DNA of 59,517 nucleotides. It comes from Candidatus Woesearchaeota archaeon. Lineage in GTDB: Archaea > Nanobdellota > Nanobdellia > SCGC-AAA011-G17 > CAYFGV01. Below the pieces are notes generated by a model. That model searched no databases and was not told the origin of the DNA. It saw only the letters and a list, made by a program, of their open reading frames with translations. Positions 933 through 19,132 of this stretch are shown here, one piece after another. How positions within the stretch are numbered: position 1 is the stretch's first letter; each line of letters opens with the position of its first letter. A program made the translations under genes and the position numbers. Location: positions 1 to 59,517 of the forward strand of contig CAYFGV010000001.1 in the NCBI GenBank assembly GCA_964342845.1. The letters run 5' to 3'.

Positions 933-2723
933 ATGAAATCTTGCGTACCAGACACATCAGTAATTGTAGATAAATTAATCTCTAAATTAATAAAATCTGA
1001 AGAAATACCTAAACATATCTTAGTTCCAAATGCAGTTGTAGCAGAACTAGAAGCACAAGCAAACAGAAACAAAGAAACAGGCTTTCTAGGCTTAGAAGAA
1101 CTACAAACTTTACAAGAATTAAACAAAAATAAACAAATAAAATTAGAATTCATAGGTCCAAGGCCAACTCCAGATCAAATAAGATACGCAAAAGCAGGGG
1201 AAATAGACGCTTTAATAAGACAACTAGCTTATGACTACCAAGCAACCTTAATCACTGCAGATAAAGTCCAAAAAGAGTCAGCAAAAGCCTTTGGCTTAGA
1301 AGTTAAATTCATAGTAACAGAAACACCCAAAGAAAAACTAAAAATAGAACATTATTTTGACGAAACAACTATGTCTATCCATTTAAAAGAAGATTGCCTA
1401 CCAATAGCAAAAAAAGGTTCACCAGGAAACTGGGAAACAGCAGAACTAGCTAAAACGCCATTAACACAAGAACAACTTCAAGAATTTTCAAAAGATATCA
1501 TAGAAAAAGCAAAAATGGATCCAAAATCATTTATAGAGATCTCAAGACCAGGTTCCTCAGTCGTCCAATATAAAAACTACAGAATTGTTATTGTAAGAAA
1601 ACCAGTAGCAGATGGTTTAGAAATAACAGCAATAAGACCAATAAAGAAATTAACTTTAGAAGAATACAAAATACCTACAGAAATACTCACTAGAATAAAA
1701 ACAAAAGCACACGGAATCATCATAGCAGGAGAAACAGGCTCAGGAAAAACTACAATAGCTCAAGCAATAGCAGAAAATTATTCAAAATCTAAAAGGATTG
1801 TAAAAACAGTAGAATCTCCAAGAGACCTACAATTAGGAAATGAAATTACCCAATACTCTAAAAACTTCACATCTTCAGAAGAAATCCATGATATTTTATT
1901 CCTATCAAGACCAGACAATTTAATTTTCGATGAAATAAGAGATACACCTGATTTCAAATTATATATTGATTTAAGATTAGCAGGTTCAAACTGCATAGGT
2001 GTTCTACATTCAGCAGCACCAATAGACTCTATTCAAAGATTTATCTCAAGAATGGACACAGGAATGATTCCTTCTGTTTTAGACACTATCTTATTTATCG
2101 AAGCAGGAAAGATTCATACAGTTCTAACTTTAAAAATGAGAGTTAAAGTTCCTTCTGGAATGACAGAATCAGATTTAGCAAGACCAGTAGTAGAAGTCTT
2201 TGATTTTGTAAAAGATGAACTAATCTATGAAATATATTCTTATGGAGAAGAAACAGTAGTAGTTCCAGTTTCAGAACAAAATGCTTCACCTTTATCTAAA
2301 CTAGCTTCATTACAATTAGAAACACAACTAAGAGACTATGTTTCAGATGTAAAAGTTGAAATGGATAATACAGGAAGAGCAACTATTTATATTCCTGAAG
2401 ATGAAATCGCAAAAATAATTGGAAAAGGTGGAAAAAGAATAGAACAAATAGAAAAAGAATTAGGTGTTAGGTTAACAGTTAAAGAATTAAAAAGAGATAA
2501 AAAAACAAGTGATTTCACAGTTTCTGAAAAGAAAAAATTTATTATCTTCAAAACTTCAAGAACATTATCAGGAAAAACAGCAAGCATTCTAGTAAATAAC
2601 CAATTCTTATTATCCGCTATCATAAGTCCACAAGGGGATTTAAAAGTCAACAAAAAATCCCAAGCAGGAAAATCTTTATTATATGCTCTAGATCATAATG
2701 AAGAGATAGAATTAAGTTATTAG
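933..2723 (+). CDS. PIN-domain / PilT-like ATPase / KH-domain protein (COG1855-type archaeal ATPase)
   Basis: N-terminal PIN-like segment (PDTSVIVD...), Walker A GETGSGKTT, and a C-terminal KH-like IIGKGGKRIEQIEKELG. Confidence 0.8.
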   Translation: MKSCVPDTSVIVDKLISKLIKSEEIPKHILVPNAVVAELEAQANRNKETGFLGLEELQTLQELNKNKQIKLEFIGPRPTPDQIRYAKAGEIDALIRQLAYDYQATLITADKVQKESAKAFGLEVKFIVTETPKEKLKIEHYFDETTMSIHLKEDCLPIAKKGSPGNWETAELAKTPLTQEQLQEFSKDIIEKAKMDPKSFIEISRPGSSVVQYKNYRIVIVRKPVADGLEITAIRPIKKLTLEEYKIPTEILTRIKTKAHGIIIAGETGSGKTTIAQAIAENYSKSKRIVKTVESPRDLQLGNEITQYSKNFTSSEEIHDILFLSRPDNLIFDEIRDTPDFKLYIDLRLAGSNCIGVLHSAAPIDSIQRFISRMDTGMIPSVLDTILFIEAGKIHTVLTLKMRVKVPSGMTESDLARPVVEVFDFVKDELIYEIYSYGEETVVVPVSEQNASPLSKLASLQLETQLRDYVSDVKVEMDNTGRATIYIPEDEIAKIIGKGGKRIEQIEKELGVRLTVKELKRDKKTSDFTVSEKKKFIIFKTSRTLSGKTASILVNNQFLLSAIISPQGDLKVNKKSQAGKSLLYALDHNEEIELSY

Positions 2724-6457: not shown

Positions 6458-6769
6458 ATGGAACAAACAAAATTTATTAAACATTTAGGAGACTCACCTG
6501 TAATAAGAATTCTAGATTTTTTAATTACTGGAAGAGATTTCGATTACTCTTTAAGTGATATAGCAAGAAATGCTGGAGTCTCATGGACAACACTACACAG
6601 AATATGGCCACAATTCATAAATAATAAGATAGTCATCCAAACAAGAAAAATTGGCCAAGCAAAACTTTTCCAACTTAACAACGAAAACAAAGTGGTACAA
6701 AACCTAGTTAAACTATACAAAACAATACTAAGATCAGACTTAAAGATAACACAAGAAATTAAAGTATGA
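6458..6769 (+). CDS. winged-helix DNA-binding protein (paralog family A/B/C)
   Basis: wHTH-like RILDFLITGRDFDYSLSDIARNAGVSWTTLHRIW...GQAKLFQLN. TTTATAAA at 6428-6435, 23 nt upstream. Confidence 0.65.
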   Translation: MEQTKFIKHLGDSPVIRILDFLITGRDFDYSLSDIARNAGVSWTTLHRIWPQFINNKIVIQTRKIGQAKLFQLNNENKVVQNLVKLYKTILRSDLKITQEIKV

Positions 6770-7080
6770 ACCCAAAATTAGAAGGAAACACAGTAAGAAA
6801 CAGAATATGGAACTTCTTAATAGTCCATTCAGAATTTGATTATTCAATGAAAGACATTGCTAAATTCTCAGAAATAAGCTACACAGCCTTAAAAGAAATC
6901 TGGAAAGAACTCATCAAAAGAGACATAGTAATACATACAAGAGATGTCGGAAAAGCTAAAATGTATAAATTAAACAGAGAAAACCCACAAGTAGAAAAAT
7001 TCGTTGAATTCTATTGGTCTGTCATAAACTCAGAAGCAGATAAAAAAATAAAAGAAGAAATCAAAATTCCTGCAGTATAA
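6766..7080 (+). CDS. winged-helix DNA-binding protein, tandem paralog
   Basis: Aligns with the preceding gene along its whole length (FDYSMKDIAKFSEISYTALKEIW...GKAKMYKLN). ATGA start/stop overlap with the upstream gene. Confidence 0.65.
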   Translation: MNPKLEGNTVRNRIWNFLIVHSEFDYSMKDIAKFSEISYTALKEIWKELIKRDIVIHTRDVGKAKMYKLNRENPQVEKFVEFYWSVINSEADKKIKEEIKIPAV

Positions 7081-7087
7081 ATTAAAA

Positions 7088-7231
7088 ATGAAAGAAATTA
7101 ACTATAAAAGATTACTAAAAGAAATAACAAAACTAAAAGGATCTTCAAAAAGAAAAACTACAAATGAACAATTACACAAAGCAGAAGAAAAAACATTTAA
7201 AATATTAGAAAAGAAATTCGGAATTAAATAA
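7088..7231 (+). CDS. possible 47-aa small ORF
   Basis: MKEINYKRLLKEITKLKGSSKRKTTNEQLHKAEEKTFKILEKKFGIK. It fills the gap between the wHTH pair and the convergent glycosyltransferase. No homology evidence. Confidence 0.25.
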   Translation: MKEINYKRLLKEITKLKGSSKRKTTNEQLHKAEEKTFKILEKKFGIK

Positions 7232-8347
7232 CTATTTCTTAAAAACCCTTTCAAAAACTTTACAAACACCTTCAGAAGTATTTTTCCAACTAAAACTAGT
7301 AGCAGTCTCCCTTGCACCAGAACCTAATTTTAAACGCAACTCATCATCACTCAACAGTTTCTCAATTTTCAAACTCAAATCTCTAACATCTCCTTTCTTA
7401 TACAACCTACAATTAAAACCTTCAATTAAATAATCTTTCATACCACCAACACCTGAACTAACAACAGCTAAACCGCAACTCATTGCTTCCAAAGTACTTA
7501 AAGAACTAGTCTCTGTATGAGAAGGCATCACATAAATATCAGCTGCCTGCAAATAAGGAACCACATTATCAACAAAACCAGTAATAACCACGCCCTCTTC
7601 AGAACTAAACTTTCTCTTCAAACTTTTCAAACCATCTCCAACAAACAACAACACAACATTTTCCAAACCCTTAAAAGCTTCAAACAAATCATCCAGATTC
7701 TTTTCCCTAGCTAAACGACCAACATAAACAATAACTTTTAAATTGCTATCAAAACCTAATCTCTCTTTAGCCTTAGCTTTGTCTCTAACTTGAATAAATT
7801 TATCAGAATCAACACCTAATGGAACAACACTAATTCTGGTTTTAACACCAATATTTTCTAGTTCCTCCTTAATTCCCTCAGAACTAACCAACAACTCATC
7901 AACTTTATTATAATACTTCTTAACTCTTTTCTTAATCAGCCATTTTAAAACAAACAAACCTCTTAAACCAACAGCACCAGTAAACAACTCCCAATCCATT
8001 GTATGAACAGTACAAATAACATTTTTCTTTAATTTTCTACAAATCTTAATAGTCTCCTTACCAATTGGCCCTAGAGCATGTACCCACACAACATCATTAT
8101 TTTTTACCCATTCTTTCAGCAAAGCTTTATCAACTTTAGCCAAGGTATAATCCCCATAACTAATCCTGCTTAATGGCATTCTAGCAACATCTACTTTATC
8201 AACAGCAAATTCTTTTGAACCATTGAAATCAGGAGCAATCACATCTACTTTATATTTTTCTTTCAAAAAAGGAATAACTTCATTCAACATAACAGAAACT
8301 CCGTCTACTCTTGGGAAAAAATTATCAGTTGCTATTAATAAGTTCAT
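7232..8347 (-). CDS. glycosyltransferase family 4 (GT-B, retaining)
   Basis: C-terminal GT1/GT4 signature PSHTETSSLSTLEAMSCGLAVVSSGVGG, plus an N-terminal Glyco_trans_4-like domain. Confidence 0.85.
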   Translation of the reverse strand: MNLLIATDNFFPRVDGVSVMLNEVIPFLKEKYKVDVIAPDFNGSKEFAVDKVDVARMPLSRISYGDYTLAKVDKALLKEWVKNNDVVWVHALGPIGKETIKICRKLKKNVICTVHTMDWELFTGAVGLRGLFVLKWLIKKRVKKYYNKVDELLVSSEGIKEELENIGVKTRISVVPLGVDSDKFIQVRDKAKAKERLGFDSNLKVIVYVGRLAREKNLDDLFEAFKGLENVVLLFVGDGLKSLKRKFSSEEGVVITGFVDNVVPYLQAADIYVMPSHTETSSLSTLEAMSCGLAVVSSGVGGMKDYLIEGFNCRLYKKGDVRDLSLKIEKLLSDDELRLKLGSGARETATSFSWKNTSEGVCKVFERVFKK

Positions 8348-9017: not shown

Positions 9018-9131
9018 TGCGCCGACTGGGATTTGAACCCAGGTCAAAGGCTCACTTCCACCTTTTTGCTCAAGCTTTTTCTTAAAAAGGTTGTTGGAAG
9101 GCCTCTATCCTAACCACTAGACTACCGGCGC
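9018..9131 (-). tRNA. tRNA-Gly (anticodon UCC) with 42-nt intron at the canonical 37/38 position
   Basis: Reverse complement folds as acceptor GCGCCGG/TCGGCGC, anticodon stem GAGGC/GCCTT, loop CTTCCA|intron|A, and T arm CTGGG-TTCAAAT-CCCAG. Mature length 72 nt plus the 42-nt intron. Confidence 0.85.
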
Positions 9132-10066: not shown

Positions 10067-11874
10067 CTAACTTTAACCCCTGCCTTAACCTTTTTCTCAG
10101 GACAAACTAAAGTAACTTTATCACCATCTACAGCAGCTAACAACATACCTTCACTTTTAACACCACGCAAAACAGCTGGTTTTAAATTACAAACCACAGT
10201 AATCTCCTTACCAACCAAATCTTTAGCTTTATAATCACTTTTAATTCCAGCAACAACAGTCCTTTTCTCAGCCCCAGTATCAACTTTCATAACAACCAAC
10301 TTATCTGCATTTGGATGGTTTTTAGCCTCCAAAATCTTTCCAACTCTTAAATCCAACTTCCCGAATTCTTCAAAACTTACTTCCATTTTTTTTGAACCTC
10401 CGACATCTTCTATTTTTTTAAATAAAATTTCTTTTTTACCAACTTTACCGCTTTTCAATAAACCAAACTTACAATCTTTCAAATCACCTAATTTAATACC
10501 TAGTTGTTTATTTATCTTCTCAGAAGTATTAGGCATAAAAGGATAAACTAATATGGAAATCACCCTCAAAGAATCCAACAAAGAATATAAAATCTCTTCC
10601 TTCTTATCAGATTCCCAAGGTTTAGATTTATTAACAAACTTATTACACTCATTAACAAATTTCCATATTTCATCTAAAGCATGATGCAACTCTAACTTAT
10701 CCATATAACTATTAACCTTTTTAACATCCAACTTCTTCTGCAAATCTTTAGAAGTTTTACCTTTAGGAATTTTACCCTTAAAATATCTTTCAACCATAGA
10801 TAAAGTTCTAGACAACAAATTCCCTAAATCATTAGCTAATTCGTTATTTAACCTCTCAACTAACCTATTCTCAGAAAAATCACCATCATCTCCAAATGGA
10901 ATTTCTCTAATTAAATAATATCTAATAGCATCCACAGGATATTTATCATTCAACTCCAATGGATCTATTACATTACCAAAACTTTTACTCATCTTTTCTC
11001 CACTAGCACTCCTAATAAACCCATGTACATAAACCTCGGGTAACTTAATCCCAGAAGCTAATAAAATAGAACCCCAGATTACAGTATGATGCCATGTAAT
11101 GTCTAAACCAATATTATGCAAAGCAGGCCAATACTCTTTATATTTTTTATTTGGATAATTAACAGTAGATAGATAATTAATTAAAGCATCCACCCAAATT
11201 GCCAGAATAAATCTATCATCTCCAGGAAAAGGAATTCCCCAGCTAATTTTCTCTCTTGTTAAACTTAAATCTTTCAATGGCTCTTTTAATCTGCTTAAAA
11301 TCTCATTTCTTCTCTTCTTAGGTCTTATATAATTTGGATTTTTCTTAATATAATCAATTAACCTTTTCTGATATTTACTCATTTTAAAGAAATAAGTATC
11401 TTCCTCAAGAAACTCTGTTTTTTTATTATGTGTAGGACAATCTAATCCATTAACTAAATCTTCCCTAGAAAAATAAGTTTCACAATCAGAACAATAATAT
11501 CCAGAATATTTCCCTTCATAAATATCTCCTTTCTTATGAAGATCTTTAACTATTTTAACAACAGTTTTTTTATGTCTTTCTTCTGTAGTTCTAATAAAAT
11601 CATCATAACTAATATTATAATCTTTACATAGTTTTAAAAAGAATTTTTCCATATCTTCAACAAACTTCTTTGGACTTTTTCCTGCTTCTTTAGCATATCT
11701 CTCTATTTTACTTCCATGACAATCTAAACCAGTTGAAAAATGAACTTTTTTCCCTTTAAGTCTTTCCCATCTAGCTATAACATCTGTACAAATCTTTTCA
11801 TATAGATGACCTGCATGAGGTTTTCCAGAAGGATAATCAATTGCAGTACTAGTAAAAAATGTATTCTTTGCCAT
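10063..11874 (-). CDS. metG: methionyl-tRNA synthetase with C-terminal tRNA-binding (Trbp111/EMAPII-like) domain
   Basis: HIGH-type motif PHAGHLYE, KMSKS present, zinc knuckles (YCSDCETYF, CPTHNKK). C-terminal LDLRVGKILEAKNHPNADKLVVMKVD. Confidence 0.95.
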   Translation of the reverse strand: MAKNTFFTSTAIDYPSGKPHAGHLYEKICTDVIARWERLKGKKVHFSTGLDCHGSKIERYAKEAGKSPKKFVEDMEKFFLKLCKDYNISYDDFIRTTEERHKKTVVKIVKDLHKKGDIYEGKYSGYYCSDCETYFSREDLVNGLDCPTHNKKTEFLEEDTYFFKMSKYQKRLIDYIKKNPNYIRPKKRRNEILSRLKEPLKDLSLTREKISWGIPFPGDDRFILAIWVDALINYLSTVNYPNKKYKEYWPALHNIGLDITWHHTVIWGSILLASGIKLPEVYVHGFIRSASGEKMSKSFGNVIDPLELNDKYPVDAIRYYLIREIPFGDDGDFSENRLVERLNNELANDLGNLLSRTLSMVERYFKGKIPKGKTSKDLQKKLDVKKVNSYMDKLELHHALDEIWKFVNECNKFVNKSKPWESDKKEEILYSLLDSLRVISILVYPFMPNTSEKINKQLGIKLGDLKDCKFGLLKSGKVGKKEILFKKIEDVGGSKKMEVSFEEFGKLDLRVGKILEAKNHPNADKLVVMKVDTGAEKRTVVAGIKSDYKAKDLVGKEITVVCNLKPAVLRGVKSEGMLLAAVDGDKVTLVCPEKKVKAGVKVS

Positions 11875-11909: not shown

Positions 11910-12653
11910 CTAAATTGAATCTTTCCAAATCTTCTCAAAAATATTCTTCTGAAGCCCAGCTATGCTCTCTTCTTTTATATAAACACCCAGTTGCTCTTTT
12001 TCATTAGCTTTTAAAATTAATATAGCATCTTTTAAAATATATAAAACAGAATTTAAATTTTTAATCACACCATCATTAAATCTTATTCTTCTTAGCTCTT
12101 CTTTATCTTTTTTCTTTAAATTTAACATAGCTTTTGTTTTCTCAGTAATAACTTTAAGATGTATTTTCTTTTCTTTTCTTTTCCGTCTAAATTGTGGATG
12201 AAATGCTGGAAGAAATTCTAGTATTTTTTCTGGTATATACGCGTATAGCTCTTGATTTTCTTTTTCTACTAATTTAGCTGAAATTGTTTTAAAACCTCCT
12301 ACTCCCTCATAAACTTCTATTTTTGGTCTTGTTAACGCAATCTTTTGTAAAGCTTCTAATTCTGGTAGAATTTCTTTAATTGATTCTGCTTTTTGTTGTT
12401 TTTCTTCTTCTATTATTTCTAAGATTCTTTTAGGTTGAATAGCACTATAGTGTTTAACTCCCGATTTAATAACTTCACTGATAAATCCCTTTTCTTGAAG
12501 AGTTTTTAGAATATAATAAGAAGCCTCTCTTTTAATATTAGCTTTTTGAGCTATTTCACTAGCTTTTGCTATTCCTAATTTTAATGTGTTTAGATAAACT
12601 AACGATTCTTGCTTATTTAGTCCTATTTTTTCTAAATATTGCTGTATTTCCAT
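11910..12653 (-). CDS. TrmB-family transcriptional regulator
   Basis: N-terminal TrmB wHTH (LGLNKQESLVYLNTLKLGIAKASEIAQKANIKREASYYILKTLQEKGFI). About 250 aa with a C-terminal effector-like domain. Confidence 0.8.
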   Translation of the reverse strand: MEIQQYLEKIGLNKQESLVYLNTLKLGIAKASEIAQKANIKREASYYILKTLQEKGFISEVIKSGVKHYSAIQPKRILEIIEEEKQQKAESIKEILPELEALQKIALTRPKIEVYEGVGGFKTISAKLVEKENQELYAYIPEKILEFLPAFHPQFRRKRKEKKIHLKVITEKTKAMLNLKKKDKEELRRIRFNDGVIKNLNSVLYILKDAILILKANEKEQLGVYIKEESIAGLQKNIFEKIWKDSI

Positions 12654-12655
12654 AA

Positions 12656-12699
12656 TATTCTGTAGAACTTTTAGCCTTTTAAATCTTTCTATTCTGTAG
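12656..12699. promoter_or_regulatory. two direct 10-bp repeats TATTCTGTAG bracketing a TATA element (candidate operator)
   Basis: Exact copies at 12656-12665 and 12690-12699. ATTTAAAA (minus strand, 12677-12684) sits between them, 24 nt upstream of the TrmB-like start codon. Confidence 0.35.
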
Positions 12700-12750
12700 T
12701 AATATTTTTTACACCATATCCTTAAGTATAATTTCTTACTCTAAGGTAGT

Positions 12751-13902
12751 ATGAAATACAAAGAACTAAGAGAAAAAGTACAAAATTTAGAAAAATATCC
12801 TGGATGTGTCAAAATAGATAGATCTCCTTTAATTCATAAAGGCTTTCCTGGAACTTTTAATTTAAGTTTTACAGAACATCCTTGGTTAGAAGAACATGGG
12901 AAATATGCTGATTTTGATCATGATTATGTATTCTCAACTATCCAAAGCTGTATCAGGTTAAATGATTTCCCTTTGATGGGCTCTAGTGATTCTTGGAAAT
13001 ATCTTGGGGTCTTTGAGATGGCAGACTTATTTGGTATGGTTAGTCTTAAAGATAGATCAAATTCTGTAGATTTACAAAGAAAACAAACTAAAGCATTATT
13101 TAAATTATTTGAAGATTTAGGCATTAGCAAAAACTCAATATATCCTTCTTATCAGGCCGGAGGAAAAGTAAAAGAGATAATAAATGGAAAATATGATTTT
13201 GATTTTAATATTCCAAAAGATATTATTTCTAAGCAAGTATTCCTAGAACAAGGAGTTCCAGAAGAGAATTTGATCTCAGATACATCTAGATTAACTTTCT
13301 TAGCAACGAATCTTTATAAAAGTATACCTGAAGAAAAAGGTGCAATCCCTATATTAACTCCTTGGGGTTATAGAAGTGAAATTAATGTAAATATTAGTAC
13401 AAAAGAAAGCCCAAAATATATTGATGTTGCCACAATTCAGAGATTCCTTTGGAAACCAATATCAAATTCTGGCCAAACAACTGGATTGGATGAAATAGAT
13501 GATGAAGTTTCAATAGCTGCTACTGGATTAGAAAGGTTATGTATGGTTGCTAATGACCTACAAAAGGTCCAAGATGTAGACTACATTAAACCATTTTATG
13601 AAGTTTTAGGCAAAGAACAGATTTCATGTGGTGAAAGCCTAAGAGCATTGCATAGAATTTACTCAGATATGAAAAAATTTAAAACACCTTCATTAAGTAG
13701 AAATAGAAAACCAAAAATAAGAAAATTACTCCAAAACATACCAAGAGATTTAACTTTAGATAAAATAAAAGACTTATTACAAATCCATTCAGAAACTCAG
13801 CCATGGCACTCAGAACTTAAAGAAGGAATAGAACCAACAATAGAAAGAATAAAAGTATATAGGAATCTTAAAACAAATTCACAAATGTTCTCTAGGAGGT
13901 AA
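12751..13902 (+). CDS. alanyl-tRNA synthetase catalytic-core-like protein (stand-alone, divergent)
   Basis: By-eye matches to archaeal AlaRS class IIc motifs: IQSCIRLNDF...LGVFEMADLFG (QPCIRxxD...FFEMMxHxxF), PWGYRSEINV, IDVATIQRF, SIAATGLERLCMV (VDTGYGLER), SLRALHRIYSD. Only 383 aa. Confidence 0.6.
   Translation: MKYKELREKVQNLEKYPGCVKIDRSPLIHKGFPGTFNLSFTEHPWLEEHGKYADFDHDYVFSTIQSCIRLNDFPLMGSSDSWKYLGVFEMADLFGMVSLKDRSNSVDLQRKQTKALFKLFEDLGISKNSIYPSYQAGGKVKEIINGKYDFDFNIPKDIISKQVFLEQGVPEENLISDTSRLTFLATNLYKSIPEEKGAIPILTPWGYRSEINVNISTKESPKYIDVATIQRFLWKPISNSGQTTGLDEIDDEVSIAATGLERLCMVANDLQKVQDVDYIKPFYEVLGKEQISCGESLRALHRIYSDMKKFKTPSLSRNRKPKIRKLLQNIPRDLTLDKIKDLLQIHSETQPWHSELKEGIEPTIERIKVYRNLKTNSQMFSRR
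13894..13900 (+). promoter_or_regulatory. Shine-Dalgarno AGGAGGT for the methyltransferase gene
   Basis: AGGAGGT lies 5 nt upstream of the ATG at 13906 and is embedded in the last codons of the upstream gene. Confidence 0.6.
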
Positions 13903-13905
13903 TGA

Positions 13906-14538
13906 ATGAAAATAATTGAAATCAGTGATTGGGAGTATCAATCAAAGATGGATAAATCTCAAAAAAAAATCGTTAACGAATTAGAAGCTTCGATAAGATC
14001 TAAAATAACTGATAAATATCTTTACGGGTGTGATAAAACCTACAGGCAGGAGATTTTGTACTATGTTAACACAAAATTAAACCAACTAATTAGTGTAGGA
14101 ATTAAATCATTTGAAGGAAAATCCTTTTTAGATCTGGGTTGTGGAAATACAGGATTTATGGATTATGGTGGTGGAGATATGTTCCGCCCTTGGCTTTGTA
14201 GAACATTAACTGAATTAGGAGCGAAAAGAGTAATCGGGGTAGATATTGGAAAAAATAAAGATAAAACTTACGAGGTTCATAGAGCAGACTTAACTAAAAT
14301 GAATTGTTTAAACTTTTTAGAAACGGCTTCAATAAATGTTGCAACCTCATTTAATCTTTTTGATTCTCCAGACTTCTATGGGGAATGGGACCAAAGATTT
14401 GTAAACGGAGATCTATATTTTTGGAAGTTAAATTCCCAGTTAAAAAAGATTGTGAAGCCAGATGGATTGTTTGTTCACGATTATCCTTTTGCAGATCGTA
14501 ATAACCTAACTAATTGTTGTAATTATTCAGTTCTATGA
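13906..14538 (+). CDS. class I SAM-dependent methyltransferase
   Basis: Motif I FLDLGCGNTGF followed by an acidic-loop VIGVDIG. Starts 4 nt after the AlaRS-like gene. Confidence 0.7.
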   Translation: MKIIEISDWEYQSKMDKSQKKIVNELEASIRSKITDKYLYGCDKTYRQEILYYVNTKLNQLISVGIKSFEGKSFLDLGCGNTGFMDYGGGDMFRPWLCRTLTELGAKRVIGVDIGKNKDKTYEVHRADLTKMNCLNFLETASINVATSFNLFDSPDFYGEWDQRFVNGDLYFWKLNSQLKKIVKPDGLFVHDYPFADRNNLTNCCNYSVL

Positions 14539-14583
14539 CATGTTAAAGACTTTACTAAAAGATATAAATTAAAAGAAAAATTT

Positions 14584-16113
14584 TTAAATAAATACCATTG
14601 CTATCTTCAAAAAGAAGACTTTCACCTTTCCACTAAAACTATCTCCTTTTATTACAATATCTCCGCTATCAATAGCATCTAAAGCAGCCTGCATAGGGTC
14701 TTCAGAGTCAACAATCATATCTAATGTTTCTTCACTTAAATAAACACTAAGAGAAGTCTTATCTATTTCCTTCCCAGAAACTAAGTTAACTTTGCCTTCA
14801 ACAATAATAATACCTATAACCTCGTCATCAATAAATGCATTCATTCTTTCATTTTCACCAATTCCTGGAACTTCAGGCAAATAACTAGAAAACTGGTCCA
14901 TATCCTCTTCAGAAATTTCCATCTTTTGATAATCTTCTTCTTTAACACAAACATAATCAACTATACATCCAGCAGAGTCATAAATAGGCACAGGATACCA
15001 TCCAGCCTCACAATCATCGAAAAACGGAACACAATGTGATGGTTGCTCTTCCTCTGGTTCATCTAAAGGAATTTCAGTTACAGGTGGCTCCCAAATAGCA
15101 AACAAAGGCTCACCATATCTCAAAATATGTCCTTCATCTCCAACAGCCCAACAAACATCACCATCACAATCAATACCTCTCACCATGTTAAAAGGCAAAT
15201 TACCACTAGCATAACTTATGTCAGCCATAGAAACATTCCATTCCAACCCAGAATCACCAGTATATCTAATAACATTCTGTCCTCCAACAAAACCATCAGT
15301 AGTATTAATAAATTCTATAGCTCTTAAACCAGAAACAGCCCCTCCATTACTATAATCTTCCCAGCTACTTCCTCCATCCTCTGTTAAATGAACTATTTCA
15401 TTAGAACCAGCAACCCAACAAGTTTCTTCATCAGAACAATAAATATCATGAAGTATTTTACCACCAACCTCTTCATCTTCATAAAGTATAGTAGATCTTA
15501 ACTCCCAACTTGCTCCACCATCTTCACTTCTATAAAATTCTCCATTAGTTCCTCCTGCATAACCAACATCATCTACAAAGAAAACAGTATTCATTGAAAC
15601 ATCATCAGCTAGCACAGACGGCCAAGTCAAACCACCATTTGAAGTTCTTAAAATTGAATCAACACTAGAATCACCAACAATAACAGCTGTATTTTCGTCA
15701 AAACACCAAACATCCATTAGAGTTCCAGGATAATCTAAAACATCTTGAAGAACCCAACTGTCACCAGAATCATCTGTTTTTAGAATAGTTCCACCAGAAC
15801 CTACAGCCCATCCATCTTCAACACCAGAAAAACAAACCGAATAAATAATATCACTACCTAATAATTCATCTGGAAGTGTTTGTGGCTCCCATGAATCTCC
15901 ACCATCTAACGTTTTTAAAATAGTTGGTTCAGATGTACCTGCAAAACCAATACCTAATCCTCCTGTAGCCCATCCTGTCGCAACATTAAGCATAAAAACA
16001 GAATGTAAGTCTTGTTCTGTTCCAGAATCCATAGATTCCCATTCATCAGCCACTGCAGAAGTTGTCAAAAAAATACTTATAAAAAACATCATTAGAAAAT
16101 TCTTATATTTCAT
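14584..16113 (-). CDS. secreted BNR/Ycf48-like beta-propeller protein with acidic Cys-containing C-terminal domain
   Basis: Signal peptide. Six SxDxGxxW-type repeats (TLDGGDSWEP, TDDSGDSWVL, TSNGGLTWPS, SEDGGASWEL, TEDGGSSWED, TGDSGLEWNV). ATG at 16113 preceded by SD GAGGTGAT (16118-16125). Confidence 0.7.
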   Translation of the reverse strand: MKYKNFLMMFFISIFLTTSAVADEWESMDSGTEQDLHSVFMLNVATGWATGGLGIGFAGTSEPTILKTLDGGDSWEPQTLPDELLGSDIIYSVCFSGVEDGWAVGSGGTILKTDDSGDSWVLQDVLDYPGTLMDVWCFDENTAVIVGDSSVDSILRTSNGGLTWPSVLADDVSMNTVFFVDDVGYAGGTNGEFYRSEDGGASWELRSTILYEDEEVGGKILHDIYCSDEETCWVAGSNEIVHLTEDGGSSWEDYSNGGAVSGLRAIEFINTTDGFVGGQNVIRYTGDSGLEWNVSMADISYASGNLPFNMVRGIDCDGDVCWAVGDEGHILRYGEPLFAIWEPPVTEIPLDEPEEEQPSHCVPFFDDCEAGWYPVPIYDSAGCIVDYVCVKEEDYQKMEISEEDMDQFSSYLPEVPGIGENERMNAFIDDEVIGIIIVEGKVNLVSGKEIDKTSLSVYLSEETLDMIVDSEDPMQAALDAIDSGDIVIKGDSFSGKVKVFFLKIAMVFI

Positions 16114-16359
16114 TAATATCACCTCTCTATGGATTTTATCTTATTACTTATTTAAAAGTTTCTATTTCTAAGAAAAAATAATTAAAAGAAAAATAATAAA
16201 AATACGTTTTGATGAAAACAAAAAGGAATACTTCTTCTAAACTTTAAGAGATTAAGAAAAAGAGTTGACAATATGGTGTAATAACCATATAAGTATGGTA
16301 TTTTAACCAAAACCTTTAAATACTAACTAATAGTTAATATATACTAACAAAAAGTTAAT

Positions 16360-16953
16360 ATGAAACCATTATCAAACAAGGAAACTGAAATTTTATTACT
16401 TTTAACTAAAGATTTTTCCAATGATTACAACTCAAATAACATTACTAAAAAAATAAAAATTACCTCTGCAGGCTCATTCAAGGCAATGAAAAACCTAGAA
16501 AAACAAAAACTAATTACAGGGAAAAAAATGGGTAAAGCCGTCTTCTATAAACCAAACCTAGAAGATTATTACGTTTTTAGATTAATAGAAACCTTACTTA
16601 TAAAAGAAGCAAGAGAAAAAGCCACAAGATGGTTAGAAGAATTTAAGGAATTATTCGAACACGTTGATATTGCAATAATATTTGGTTCTATTATAAGGAA
16701 TTTTAAAACTGCTAATGATATAGATTTATTAATTGTGTTTAAAAAAGAAAAACATAAAACAATAAAACAAATAATTGCTAAAAGGAGGATTATATCTACT
16801 AAAGCAATACATACAGTAAAACAAACCCCCAAAGACTTAACTAAAAATTTAAAAAATAAAGATAAAGTTCTCTTGAATATTATAAAAAGAGGCTACGCCT
16901 TGCATGGTTATGAAAAATTAGTAGAGGTAATAAAGAATGTCACACGCTTCTAA
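16360..16953 (+). CDS. wHTH-fused minimal nucleotidyltransferase (MNT-type antitoxin-like)
   Basis: N-terminal wHTH-like region. NTase signature IIFGSIIRNFKTANDIDLLIVF (GS...DxD). Confidence 0.7.
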   Translation: MKPLSNKETEILLLLTKDFSNDYNSNNITKKIKITSAGSFKAMKNLEKQKLITGKKMGKAVFYKPNLEDYYVFRLIETLLIKEAREKATRWLEEFKELFEHVDIAIIFGSIIRNFKTANDIDLLIVFKKEKHKTIKQIIAKRRIISTKAIHTVKQTPKDLTKNLKNKDKVLLNIIKRGYALHGYEKLVEVIKNVTRF

Positions 16954-18701: not shown

Positions 18702-19028
18702 CTAAACTGGAACTTTAATCTCAACTTCTTTCAATCCAGCCTCTGCCTCTTGCTTTAAACAAACATTATACAAATCAATTAATTTCTTCACTTTCAAATC
18801 TTCAATATTTAATTTGTAGAGCATAGCCTTTCCAATAGTTCTATCATACTCTATTAACCTATTTCCTATCATTTCTTTCCAAACCTTAATTACAGTAACT
18901 TTAGAAACCTTACTATTTCTTATAACATCTGATTGATGCACAGGCAACTCTCTAGAAGTTATTAAATACTCTAATACTCTGGCAGTACTACAACCACCTA
19001 AAGTCCTCACAAATATCGAAATTTCCAT
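18702..19028 (-). CDS. winged-helix DNA-binding protein (third paralog of 6458/6766 family)
   Basis: Aligns with the 6.4-7.1 kb paralogs (RVLEYLITSRELPVHQSDVIRNSKVSKVTVIKVW...GKAMLYKLN). The ATG at 19028 gives the paralog-like length and has TTTATATA 25 nt upstream; the track start is 19079. Confidence 0.6.
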   Translation of the reverse strand: MEISIFVRTLGGCSTARVLEYLITSRELPVHQSDVIRNSKVSKVTVIKVWKEMIGNRLIEYDRTIGKAMLYKLNIEDLKVKKLIDLYNVCLKQEAEAGLKEVEIKVPV

Positions 19029-19132
19029 CTTAATAATAGATAAACATGCTAATATATAAACGTTTCTATTCTTTACCATAAAGTATACTTTTTATACTAA
19101 ATATTTAAATAATTCAAAAAACAAAATAATTT

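Follow-up and report, generated by a model that had tools for sequence, protein, structure and literature searches.

What is the 383-residue protein encoded at positions 12751..13902 on the forward strand of contig CAYFGV010000001.1, from a Candidatus Woesearchaeota archaeon, and what does it do? The stretch of DNA that was analysed, hereafter called the window, comprises 59,517 nucleotides of this contig. The initial annotation, made from the sequence of the window, had seen in this protein a stand-alone, divergent paralog of the catalytic core of alanyl-tRNA synthetase (AlaRS), probably with a different substrate. This view is supported by profile and fold matches and by the replacement of the residues of the alanine site. 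The protein belongs to an undescribed family of aminoacyl-tRNA synthetase (aaRS) catalytic-core paralogs, which lies within class IId and has an unprecedented linkage to a regulator. From sequence-based evidence, and with a probability of roughly 0.55, we propose that the members of this family would be accessory, adenylate-forming ligases that are coupled to a TrmB-like protein and act on a substrate other than alanine.

The open reading frame (ORF), which starts with ATG and corresponds to family member P0001, is complete as first called, since it is full length with respect to about 150 homologs. Large protein collections contain 155 matches, falling into 136 clusters at 50% identity. These homologs are mostly 360-410 residues long, are labelled “hypothetical” and carry no precomputed Pfam domain. 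One apparent member (P0243, a 1029-residue NB-ARC/TPR protein) was set aside as a spurious repeat match. Full-text literature searches returned no prior description of the family.

Taken alone, the window protein has no Pfam match even at E <= 1, no NCBIfam match and, with phmmer, no match to a PDB sequence. A profile of 39 close relatives reaches AlaRS at E ~1.5 in the PDB and at a probability of 69% with hhalign, with a register error near the FFEM motif. An alignment of 79 members including divergent relatives (A3), on which all residue counts given below are based, was compared by hhalign with three bacterial AlaRS fragments, the sequences of which were checked against the PDB. The probability is 99.3%, with an E value of 9e-21 over 321 columns. 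The same profile finds AlaRS among PDB chains at 5e-17 with HMMER. Thus, the sensitive profile search on which the proposed likeness to the AlaRS core depended speaks in its favor, and the motif pairings made by eye are reproduced by the profile-profile alignment. Searches with the Pfam model tRNA-synt_2c (PF01411), proposed as a check, gave a divided answer: the window protein itself is not matched, whereas 25 of the 79 members are matched individually at E <= 0.1 (best E 1.3e-27). PF02091 is weakly matched by three family members.

The fold leads to the same superfamily. An AlphaFold2 model of the window protein, built on 39 relatives, has a predicted local distance difference test score (pLDDT) of 93.4 and a predicted template-modelling (pTM) score of 0.91. 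When this model is compared with the PDB by Foldseek, the best 26 matches are all AlaRS. The catalytic fragments of the human, E. coli and A. aeolicus enzymes are found with E values of 1.5e-15 to 4e-13 and template-modelling (TM) scores of 0.66-0.71 over the whole chain, whichever chain is used for normalization. Archaeal AlaRS (~1e-8), the alpha subunit of bacterial glycyl-tRNA synthetase (GlyRS-alpha; 3e-7) and other class II enzymes (~1e-4) come lower. GlyRS-alpha (GlyQ), the second-best structural match, likewise is a small free-standing catalytic subunit of class IId, which depends on a separate partner for full function. However, its TM scores of 0.35-0.46 are much weaker than those of AlaRS, and it keeps the Trp and the Glu that bind the amino group and has no helical domain in cis resembling the tRNA-recognition domain (ATL) of AlaRS. 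Class IId is defined by a motif 2 Asp in place of Glu after the Arg (PMC4938167). In the family, R69-x-x-D72 of motif 2 is invariant, with Asp and not Glu, and the closest relatives are AlaRS, then GlyRS-alpha. The family is a stand-alone clade of the AlaRS/bacterial GlyRS-alpha (class IId) superfamily.

Two domains can be delineated. Starting at the N-terminal helix, the alignment with AlaRS extends to about residue 347-370 of the E. coli enzyme, and to residue 364 of a small AlaRS of 597 residues described below. Residues 1 to ~265 (12751..13545, + strand) form a class II catalytic domain of the AlaRS type, which aligns with residues 2 to ~245 of the E. coli enzyme, has a beta-rich core according to DSSP and an isoelectric point (pI) of 5.5. 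Residues ~266-383 (13546..13899, +) form a basic C-terminal domain (pI 9.8), all-helical according to DSSP, which corresponds to the first half of the tRNA-recognition domain. In this domain, the profile-profile alignment pairs ESLRALHRIYSD (13633-13668, +) with DHIRS...IADG of AlaRS, and the basic cluster SRNRKPKIRKLL (13696-13731, +) with NxRGYVLRRIxRR. The Lys/Arg cluster at residues 317-328, aligned with the AlaRS helix RGYVLRRIxRR, is conserved. Across the family, the helical domain has a median pI of 9.0, as compared with 6.0 for the catalytic one. For the corresponding segments of AlaRS the values are 9.3, 8.8, and 6.8. As had been noted, both an editing domain and C-Ala are absent, the protein ending at residue 383 and having no tRNA_SAD match. 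In contrast, the claim that the tRNA-recognition domain is also missing was wrong, since approximately the first 100 residues of this domain are present (alignment to ~E. coli 350).

The residues of the adenylation site are kept. Motif 2, SCIRLND (residues 66-72; 12946..12966, +), corresponds to QRCVR...ND of AlaRS. Its R69 and D72 (AlaRS R69 and D76) are found in 79/79 members, as are G206 (AlaRS G179) and R262 (AlaRS R242). The VFEM sequence of the window protein aligns with the FFEM of AlaRS in the profile-profile comparison, and the motif 2 Phe, F88, is present in all members except one (78/79). PWGYRSE (residues 204-210; 13360..13380, +) is the counterpart of the GPCGPCTE loop, with the invariant G206 and with E210, equivalent to E183 and retained in 76/79 members. 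In IDVATIQ (residues 224-230; 13420..13440, +), equivalent to IEIWNIV, position 225 is D or E in 79/79 members, D225 of the window protein corresponding to AlaRS E209. Finally, motif 3, SIAATGLER (residues 254-262; 13510..13536, +), which is VDTGMGLER in AlaRS, ends with R262 and contains a near-invariant G259 and E261 (78/79) that together make up the GxE of this motif. Because these ATP residues are invariant or nearly so, the adenylation machinery appears to be under strong constraint.

The residues that bind alanine have a different fate. In all AlaRS and bacterial GlyRS, a Trp and an acidic residue hold the alpha-amino group of the substrate (Valencia-Sanchez et al., 2016; PMC4938167). 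In AlaRS, Trp170 is absolutely conserved and engages the amino group in a cation-pi interaction (PMC4938167). In the family this Trp has become Leu in 71/79 members. Indeed, within DTSRLTFL of the window protein (residues 177-184; 13279..13302, +), D-T-F-L stands for the D-N-F-W of AlaRS and Leu184 for E. coli W170. The column of Asp235 contains I, L, V, G, A or P, with Ile255 in the window protein. Asn212 is replaced by Thr in 78/79 members (T228), and Val214 by Glu in 68/79 and by Gln in 7, including the window protein at position 230. The Gly237 column is a mixture of G, A and V, and a new Arg (R208) takes the place of Cys181 in 78/79 members. Replacement of the Asp of DTGxGLER had been noticed initially; it is confirmed and extends to the Trp, but the one-residue deletion then invoked is unnecessary. 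The Asp is lost even in those members that most resemble AlaRS, and the family therefore looks like a coherent clade rather than a graded series leading into AlaRS. The new Glu230, together with Glu42 and Arg208, would be candidates for recognition of the substrate.

A pattern-limited scan of 185,579 GTDB species genomes, made with a narrower alignment, detected at least 38 loci, biased toward the clade of the window. The family is uncommon among the scanned genomes, those of DPANN archaea included. It is distributed in a patchy way over DPANN, the candidate phyla radiation (CPR) and unrelated bacteria, with members in several CPR phyla, in Rokubacteria (one of them on a contig of 4.05 Mb), Deltaproteobacteria, Pseudomonadota, and Pseudobdellovibrionaceae. 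No alaS gene lies within the window. A Pacearchaeota contig (L014) carries a family gene, a TrmB-like neighbor (66% identity) and the same operator as the window, and a true AlaRS is encoded there 5 kb from the family gene (13830-15623, − strand). This AlaRS has 597 residues, matches PF01411 at 1e-138 as well as tRNA_SAD, keeps DNWW, EIWNDV, and VDTGMGVER, and is made up of a catalytic domain, a tRNA-recognition domain and an editing domain, with no C-Ala. This bacterial-type “small-AlaRS” has been reported for DPANN and CPR (bioRxiv 10.1101/2023.05.29.542759). Motif 2 of the L014 enzyme reads CIRTTDID, not the bacterial CVRAGGKHND, and has the same R-x-x-D spacing as the family. Moreover, the family matches the bacterial and eukaryotic enzymes with better scores than it does archaeal AlaRS. 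This short spacing and these scores suggest descent from the small-AlaRS lineage.

These data decide between the two readings initially offered. The split-AlaRS reading, in which the protein would be the N-terminal half, is contradicted by the true AlaRS of L014, by the occurrence of the family in bacteria with large genomes, by the loss of the alanine residues and by the neighborhoods, since no C-terminal AlaRS fragment is found among the conserved neighbors within 3.5 kb at the 38 loci. The other reading, a repurposed aaRS-like ligase, fits the family-wide loss of alanine-binding residues and the coexistence with a true AlaRS. The family is thus an accessory paralog, and not a split or sole AlaRS. 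One locus (L006, 4871-7194, identical with L016) encodes two tandem paralogs of 377 and 397 residues, 30% identical, overlapping by 4 nt and belonging to different subclades, downstream of a single TrmB-like gene; a heteromer or two substrates are possible there.

The regulator linkage is visible in the window itself. As initially noted, the family gene diverges from a gene for a TrmB-type regulator, located 97 bp away on the opposite strand (11910..12653, −). Its 247-residue product is TrmB/TrmBL2-like, with a winged helix-turn-helix (wHTH) at residues 7-75, a coiled coil and a C-terminal domain at residues ~107-247. The wHTH matches PF01978 above the cut-off (E 8e-12). The profile of the partner aligns over the full length (residues 6-248) with TrmBL2 (5bpd, 1e-7), and its N-terminal half aligns with TrmB (3qph, 7e-12). 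The partner therefore shares the TrmB wHTH and the overall organization of TrmBL2, but differs from these proteins in that it gives no sign of sugar binding. In an all-vs-all comparison of the neighbors within 3.5 kb at the 38 loci, the TrmB-like family is the only one common to more than three loci (16 loci). A divergent TrmB-like gene is located at most 800 bp upstream in 15/38 loci, from both archaea and bacteria. In the clade of the window, orthologs of the partner are 61-68% identical, as compared with ~54% for the enzyme.

Gene fusions point to the same partner. Family members of ~525 residues carry a C-terminal extension homologous to residues ~107-247 of the TrmB-like protein, that is to its non-DNA-binding domain. 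They are P0133, P0153 (from a Berkelbacteria locus, L043), P0163, and a fragment, P0192, with BLASTP E values of 4e-29, 2e-22, and 1e-18. Such Rosetta-stone fusions of the C-domain occur in at least two subclades. At the fused locus L043, no separate TrmB-like gene is found nearby, and at another locus (L003) a free-standing copy of the TrmB C-domain lies 2 kb upstream of the family gene. The literature searched contains no description of an association or fusion of a TrmB-family protein with an aaRS-like enzyme. In Rokubacteria (L026/L027, 7533-10001, and the context of P0119), the usual place of the TrmB-like gene is occupied by a large gene without Pfam domain, which shares 4 nt with the beginning of the family gene and is called as 513 aa in one metagenome.

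The 97-bp intergenic region between the two divergent genes (12654..12750) contains an operator-like imperfect palindrome, TGTAGTAA-N6-TTACACCATA (12695..12718, +), with TATA-like boxes on both sides. This element is conserved across loci, with the consensus TGT(T/A)GTAA-N6/7-TTACACCATAA. It has 25 invariant columns over 9 loci, while the flanking intergenic DNA has diverged, and 10 distinct orthologous loci each contain a single copy of the 12-mer TTTTACACCATA, in the same position. In the window the full site is unique, 0.16 occurrences being expected by chance. Two more distant loci (L006 and L019) have cleaner palindromes, TTGTTG...CAACAA, at the equivalent position. In sequence and position, the element is as would be expected if a dimeric wHTH protein bound an operator there, with archaeal promoters diverging on either side. 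Elsewhere in the window, TATTACACCATA, which differs from the operator core by one mismatch, is found on the − strand at 16260-16300, within the intergenic region 16123-16359. It adjoins a perfect inverted repeat (ACCATA-N4-TATGGT) and precedes a gene for a 197-residue protein (16360-16953), which overlaps a gene for a 172-residue protein; this copy may be a second regulatory site or a chance occurrence.

The conserved partner of the family is the TrmB-like gene, not the methyltransferase encoded downstream. In the window, a class I S-adenosylmethionine-dependent methyltransferase of 210 residues, with borderline FtsJ/Methyltransf_23 matches, is encoded immediately after the paralog (13906..14538, +), its ATG at 13906 lying 3 nt past the stop codon of the paralog gene. 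The translational coupling proposed initially is correct as regards this tight packing, and the two genes are probably co-transcribed in the window genome, but the pairing is not kept in other genomes. A role of the methyltransferase as conserved partner was rejected because those that recur near other members show no homology with that of the window or among themselves, and lie on either strand. The small ORFs located between TrmB-like and family genes are not kept across loci and were also discarded as partners.

Genes related to tRNA and aminoacylation are frequent neighbors at the loci. They encode MetRS, AspRS, HisRS (directly upstream in L042), LeuRS, PheRS, MiaA, and the tRNA-splicing endonuclease. 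In the window, the MetRS gene sits directly beyond the TrmB-like gene. In five loci, tRNA genes abut the family gene (Ile-UAU three times, Val-UAC, and Leu-CAA). A specific link with tRNA-Ile(UAU), found at three CPR/bacterial loci, was considered and downgraded, since a close relative has Val(UAC) in the same spot and another member has Leu(CAA). At one of these loci (L032, 3808-4075), the 3′ end of the tRNA-Ile(UAU) gene, GAGTCCAAGCATGCGCA, is repeated ~190 nt downstream, just before the family gene; the two repeats enclose a GC-rich, probably structured insert, an arrangement that looks like the att scar of a tRNA-integrated element. At another (L033, 11150-11413), the family gene is followed by tRNA Ile(UAU), an odd 83-nt tRNA whose anticodon is unassignable and Val(UAC); a second pair, Ile(UAU)/Val(GAC), lies 4 kb away (15612-15780). 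The first Ile(UAU) of this locus apparently has G, not U, at position 33.

Other neighborhoods suggest diverse contexts. Bacterial members lie near genes of amino-acid transport and metabolism: one member closes an operon for a Liv-type ABC transporter, and another adjoins genes for an aminotransferase, an arginase, and a peptide transporter. Genes of the HIT family (aminoacyl-adenylate/dinucleotide hydrolase type) lie 2-10 kb away at five loci (L001, L003, L013, L050, and L053). These are 5 loci in ~587 kb, as against ~0.6-1.2 expected for one or two copies per Mb; their distances vary, and they are a lead only. In L003, two 100% identical ORFs of 80 aa (DUF7557; 7114-7356 and 11297-11539) flank a 4-kb cassette with genes for the stand-alone TrmB C-domain protein, a NUDIX protein, YjbQ, a 177-aa ORF, and the family gene. 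The second copy is followed by a ParE gene, and an integrase fragment lies nearby.

As for the window as a whole, it is AT-rich (GC ~30%) and of archaeal character. Among its genes are those for GatD and for a tRNA with an intron, and its nearest relatives come from Woesearchaeota/Pacearchaeota metagenome-assembled genomes. This tRNA (9018-9131, −), detected by the Rfam tRNA model at 54 bits and missed by ARAGORN, has an anticodon loop CTTCCAA by eye and would be tRNA-Gly(UCC), interrupted after position 37/38 by an intron of ~40 nt. Read in this way, it is unrelated to the paralog and was dismissed in that respect. The window also contains three paralogous small ORFs of 103, 104, and 125 aa (6458-7080, +, and 18702-19079, −), which share 33-43% identity and of which two are arranged in tandem. 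A gene at 933-2723 (+) encodes a protein of 596 aa in which a PIN domain, a PilT/T2SSE-type ATPase and a KH domain are brought together.

According to the reading that we favor, the protein is an accessory, horizontally mobile, ATP-dependent ligase. It would bind ATP and convert a carboxylate substrate other than alanine into an acyl-adenylate, from which the acyl group would go to an acceptor; a tRNA-like RNA, acylated at its 3′ end, is the likeliest candidate. An RNA 3′ end is favored because the basic AlaRS helix that faces the acceptor stem is kept. The TrmB-like protein would bind the operator and control the divergent promoters. Its C-domain would sense the ligand of the enzyme or bind the enzyme itself, thereby coupling operon expression or enzyme activity to it.

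A number of points weigh against this scheme. The active site was mapped by aligning sequences rather than by superposing structures, position 230 of the window protein is Gln instead of the consensus Glu, and the identities of substrate and acceptor are purely inferential. Any bound tRNA would not be recognized in the manner of AlaRS, because the Asn position that reads G3:U70 is not conserved and the region of the second reader, Asp400, lies beyond the end of the alignment and is missing. By hidden Markov model searches, about half or more of the loci are without a TrmB-like gene. The fused forms carry the C-domain only, with no helix-turn-helix (HTH), so the link between enzyme and regulator may be physical or allosteric rather than transcriptional. 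In 1-Mb genomes, an aaRS gene near a family gene is no unusual coincidence. Finally, the adjacent tRNA genes belong to different isoacceptors and an att-like repeat is present in L032, so that this adjacency may mark integration and not function.

Four other explanations have to be weighed against an adenylate-forming ligase. It is very improbable, and largely refuted, that the protein functions as an additional or miniature AlaRS or that, as in Nanoarchaeum, it supplies the N-terminal half of a split enzyme. A catalytic plus tRNA-recognition core can suffice for alanylation, as illustrated by TuAlaRS of Tupanvirus, a proven AlaRS of 461 aa with an intact tRNA-recognition domain and with motifs 1-3 kept (PMC10036535). 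Like the family, TuAlaRS is a stand-alone core without editing and C-Ala domains and without the canonical Asn and Asp readers of G3:U70. The adenylation residues of the family are intact, and one member is even annotated automatically as “alanyl-tRNA synthetase.” However, family members are ~80 residues shorter than TuAlaRS, lack the region of the G3:U70-reading Asp, and have lost the equivalents of Trp170, Asp235, Asn212, and Val214, all replaced. With canonical or small AlaRS they share the catalytic fold, half of the tRNA-recognition domain, the Arg, Asp and Phe of motif 2, the Gly and Glu of GPxGxxxE and the GxER of motif 3; they differ by the absence of an editing domain, of C-Ala and of the alanine-site Trp, Asp, Asn, and Val, by their link to TrmB and by their coexistence with AlaRS. 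Indeed, a true AlaRS with its editing domain is encoded on the L014 contig, no C-half partner is conserved, and the family is rare among DPANN genomes while being present in large bacterial ones. A transferase that uses aminoacyl-tRNA and does not activate an amino acid itself, moving the acyl group from a charged tRNA to another acceptor, also appears improbable. The model is AcmF of ascamycin biosynthesis (Zheng et al., 2024), an AlaRS-like aminoacyl-tRNA-dependent transferase that reportedly has lost most ATP-binding residues and carries the substitutions N219Q and D232E at the AlaRS Asn and Asp positions (PMC12945691). Compared by description only, AcmF and the family are both repurposed, truncated AlaRS paralogs reduced to the aminoacylation and tRNA-recognition domains, with the same two positions substituted, and the family keeps the basic acceptor-stem helix. 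What disfavors such a mechanism is the intact ATP site: the Arg of motif 2 and that of motif 3 are kept by 79/79 members, and the Phe of motif 2 by 78/79, whereas most ATP-binding residues are reportedly missing from AcmF. In addition, AcmF belongs to a Streptomyces natural-product cluster, and no biosynthetic gene cluster was found at the examined loci.

The two remaining explanations start from the neighborhood of the gene. Possible, but unlikely, is a sensor or co-regulator whose ligands would be ATP and an amino acid, or uncharged tRNA, and which would form with the TrmB-like protein a two-component analogue of BirA. Precedents exist: in BirA the adenylate is the corepressor, E. coli AlaRS represses its own promoter, and HisZ and GCN2 are analogues. 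BirA works in a comparable manner without being related, as a class II aaRS-like adenylate-forming domain is joined to a wHTH that binds a palindromic operator. It is, however, a single chain of another fold subclass, while here there are two genes, or an enzyme fused to the non-DNA-binding domain of the regulator. The divergent pairing with a TrmB/TrmBL2-like protein, the conserved palindromic operator, the fusion of the regulator's C-domain to the enzyme, and the higher conservation of the partner all agree with a sensor. Yet the partner is missing in more than half of the loci, and at L043 the enzyme is fused to a C-domain devoid of HTH, a free-standing TrmB-like gene being absent from the surroundings. 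The only copy of the operator in the window lies at the promoter of the paralog, so that the regulon looks limited to the module itself and local regulation of the enzyme gene fits equally well; the strict conservation of the adenylation residues is compatible with a sensor but not specific to it. It is quite improbable that the gene is cargo of mobile elements or defense islands, encoding a tRNA-targeting toxin or an immunity enzyme with the wHTH partner as an autoregulating antitoxin-like repressor. The patchy spread over DPANN, CPR, and unrelated bacteria, the tRNA genes abutting in five loci, and the att-like repeat of L032 are in keeping with mobility. So are some neighbors: a recombinase and an OLD nuclease in L005, ParE in L003 with its duplicated flanking ORFs, BrnT/CopG in L050, and a STAND NTPase in L047. 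In contrast, many loci lie among ordinary housekeeping genes, and the divergent layout is unusual for toxin-antitoxin systems. A defense or phage origin was rejected, as PADLOC and PHROGs models gave nothing beyond generic wHTH similarity; in PADLOC the enzyme, its fusions and its tandem paralog were unmatched and the partner gave only generic HTH matches.

Paralogs of aaRS with new chemistry are rare, and each has been biologically informative, as exemplified by HisZ, AsnA, PoxA/EpmA, GluQRS, MshC, the amino acid:carrier-protein ligases, and AcmF. In the literature searched, AcmF is the only characterized paralog of the AlaRS catalytic core. The present family stands out by its spread in DPANN archaea and CPR bacteria, where standard annotation has missed it. 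It keeps the adenylation residues yet drops the amino-group clamp common to all AlaRS and bacterial GlyRS, and it is linked to a regulator and an operator. A two-domain core, catalytic plus ATL, has been proposed as the ancestor of AlaRS and bacterial GlyRS (bioRxiv 10.1101/2023.05.29.542759), and the family bears on this proposal because such a core exists here in free-standing form. As a tentative idea, which we hold to be rather unlikely as a whole, the family could represent a third functional branch of the AlaRS/bacterial GlyRS superfamily. In this branch, a free catalytic plus ATL core would acylate the 3′ end of an RNA with a non-alanine substrate, which might not be one of the standard alpha-amino acids, in physical complex with a TrmB-type factor. 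The protein is small and its structure is predicted with high confidence, which makes the ligase hypothesis directly testable. Were the idea of a third branch correct, a BirA-like enzyme/repressor system would operate in DPANN archaea and CPR bacteria, tying the state of an acyl-adenylate or tRNA directly to transcription.

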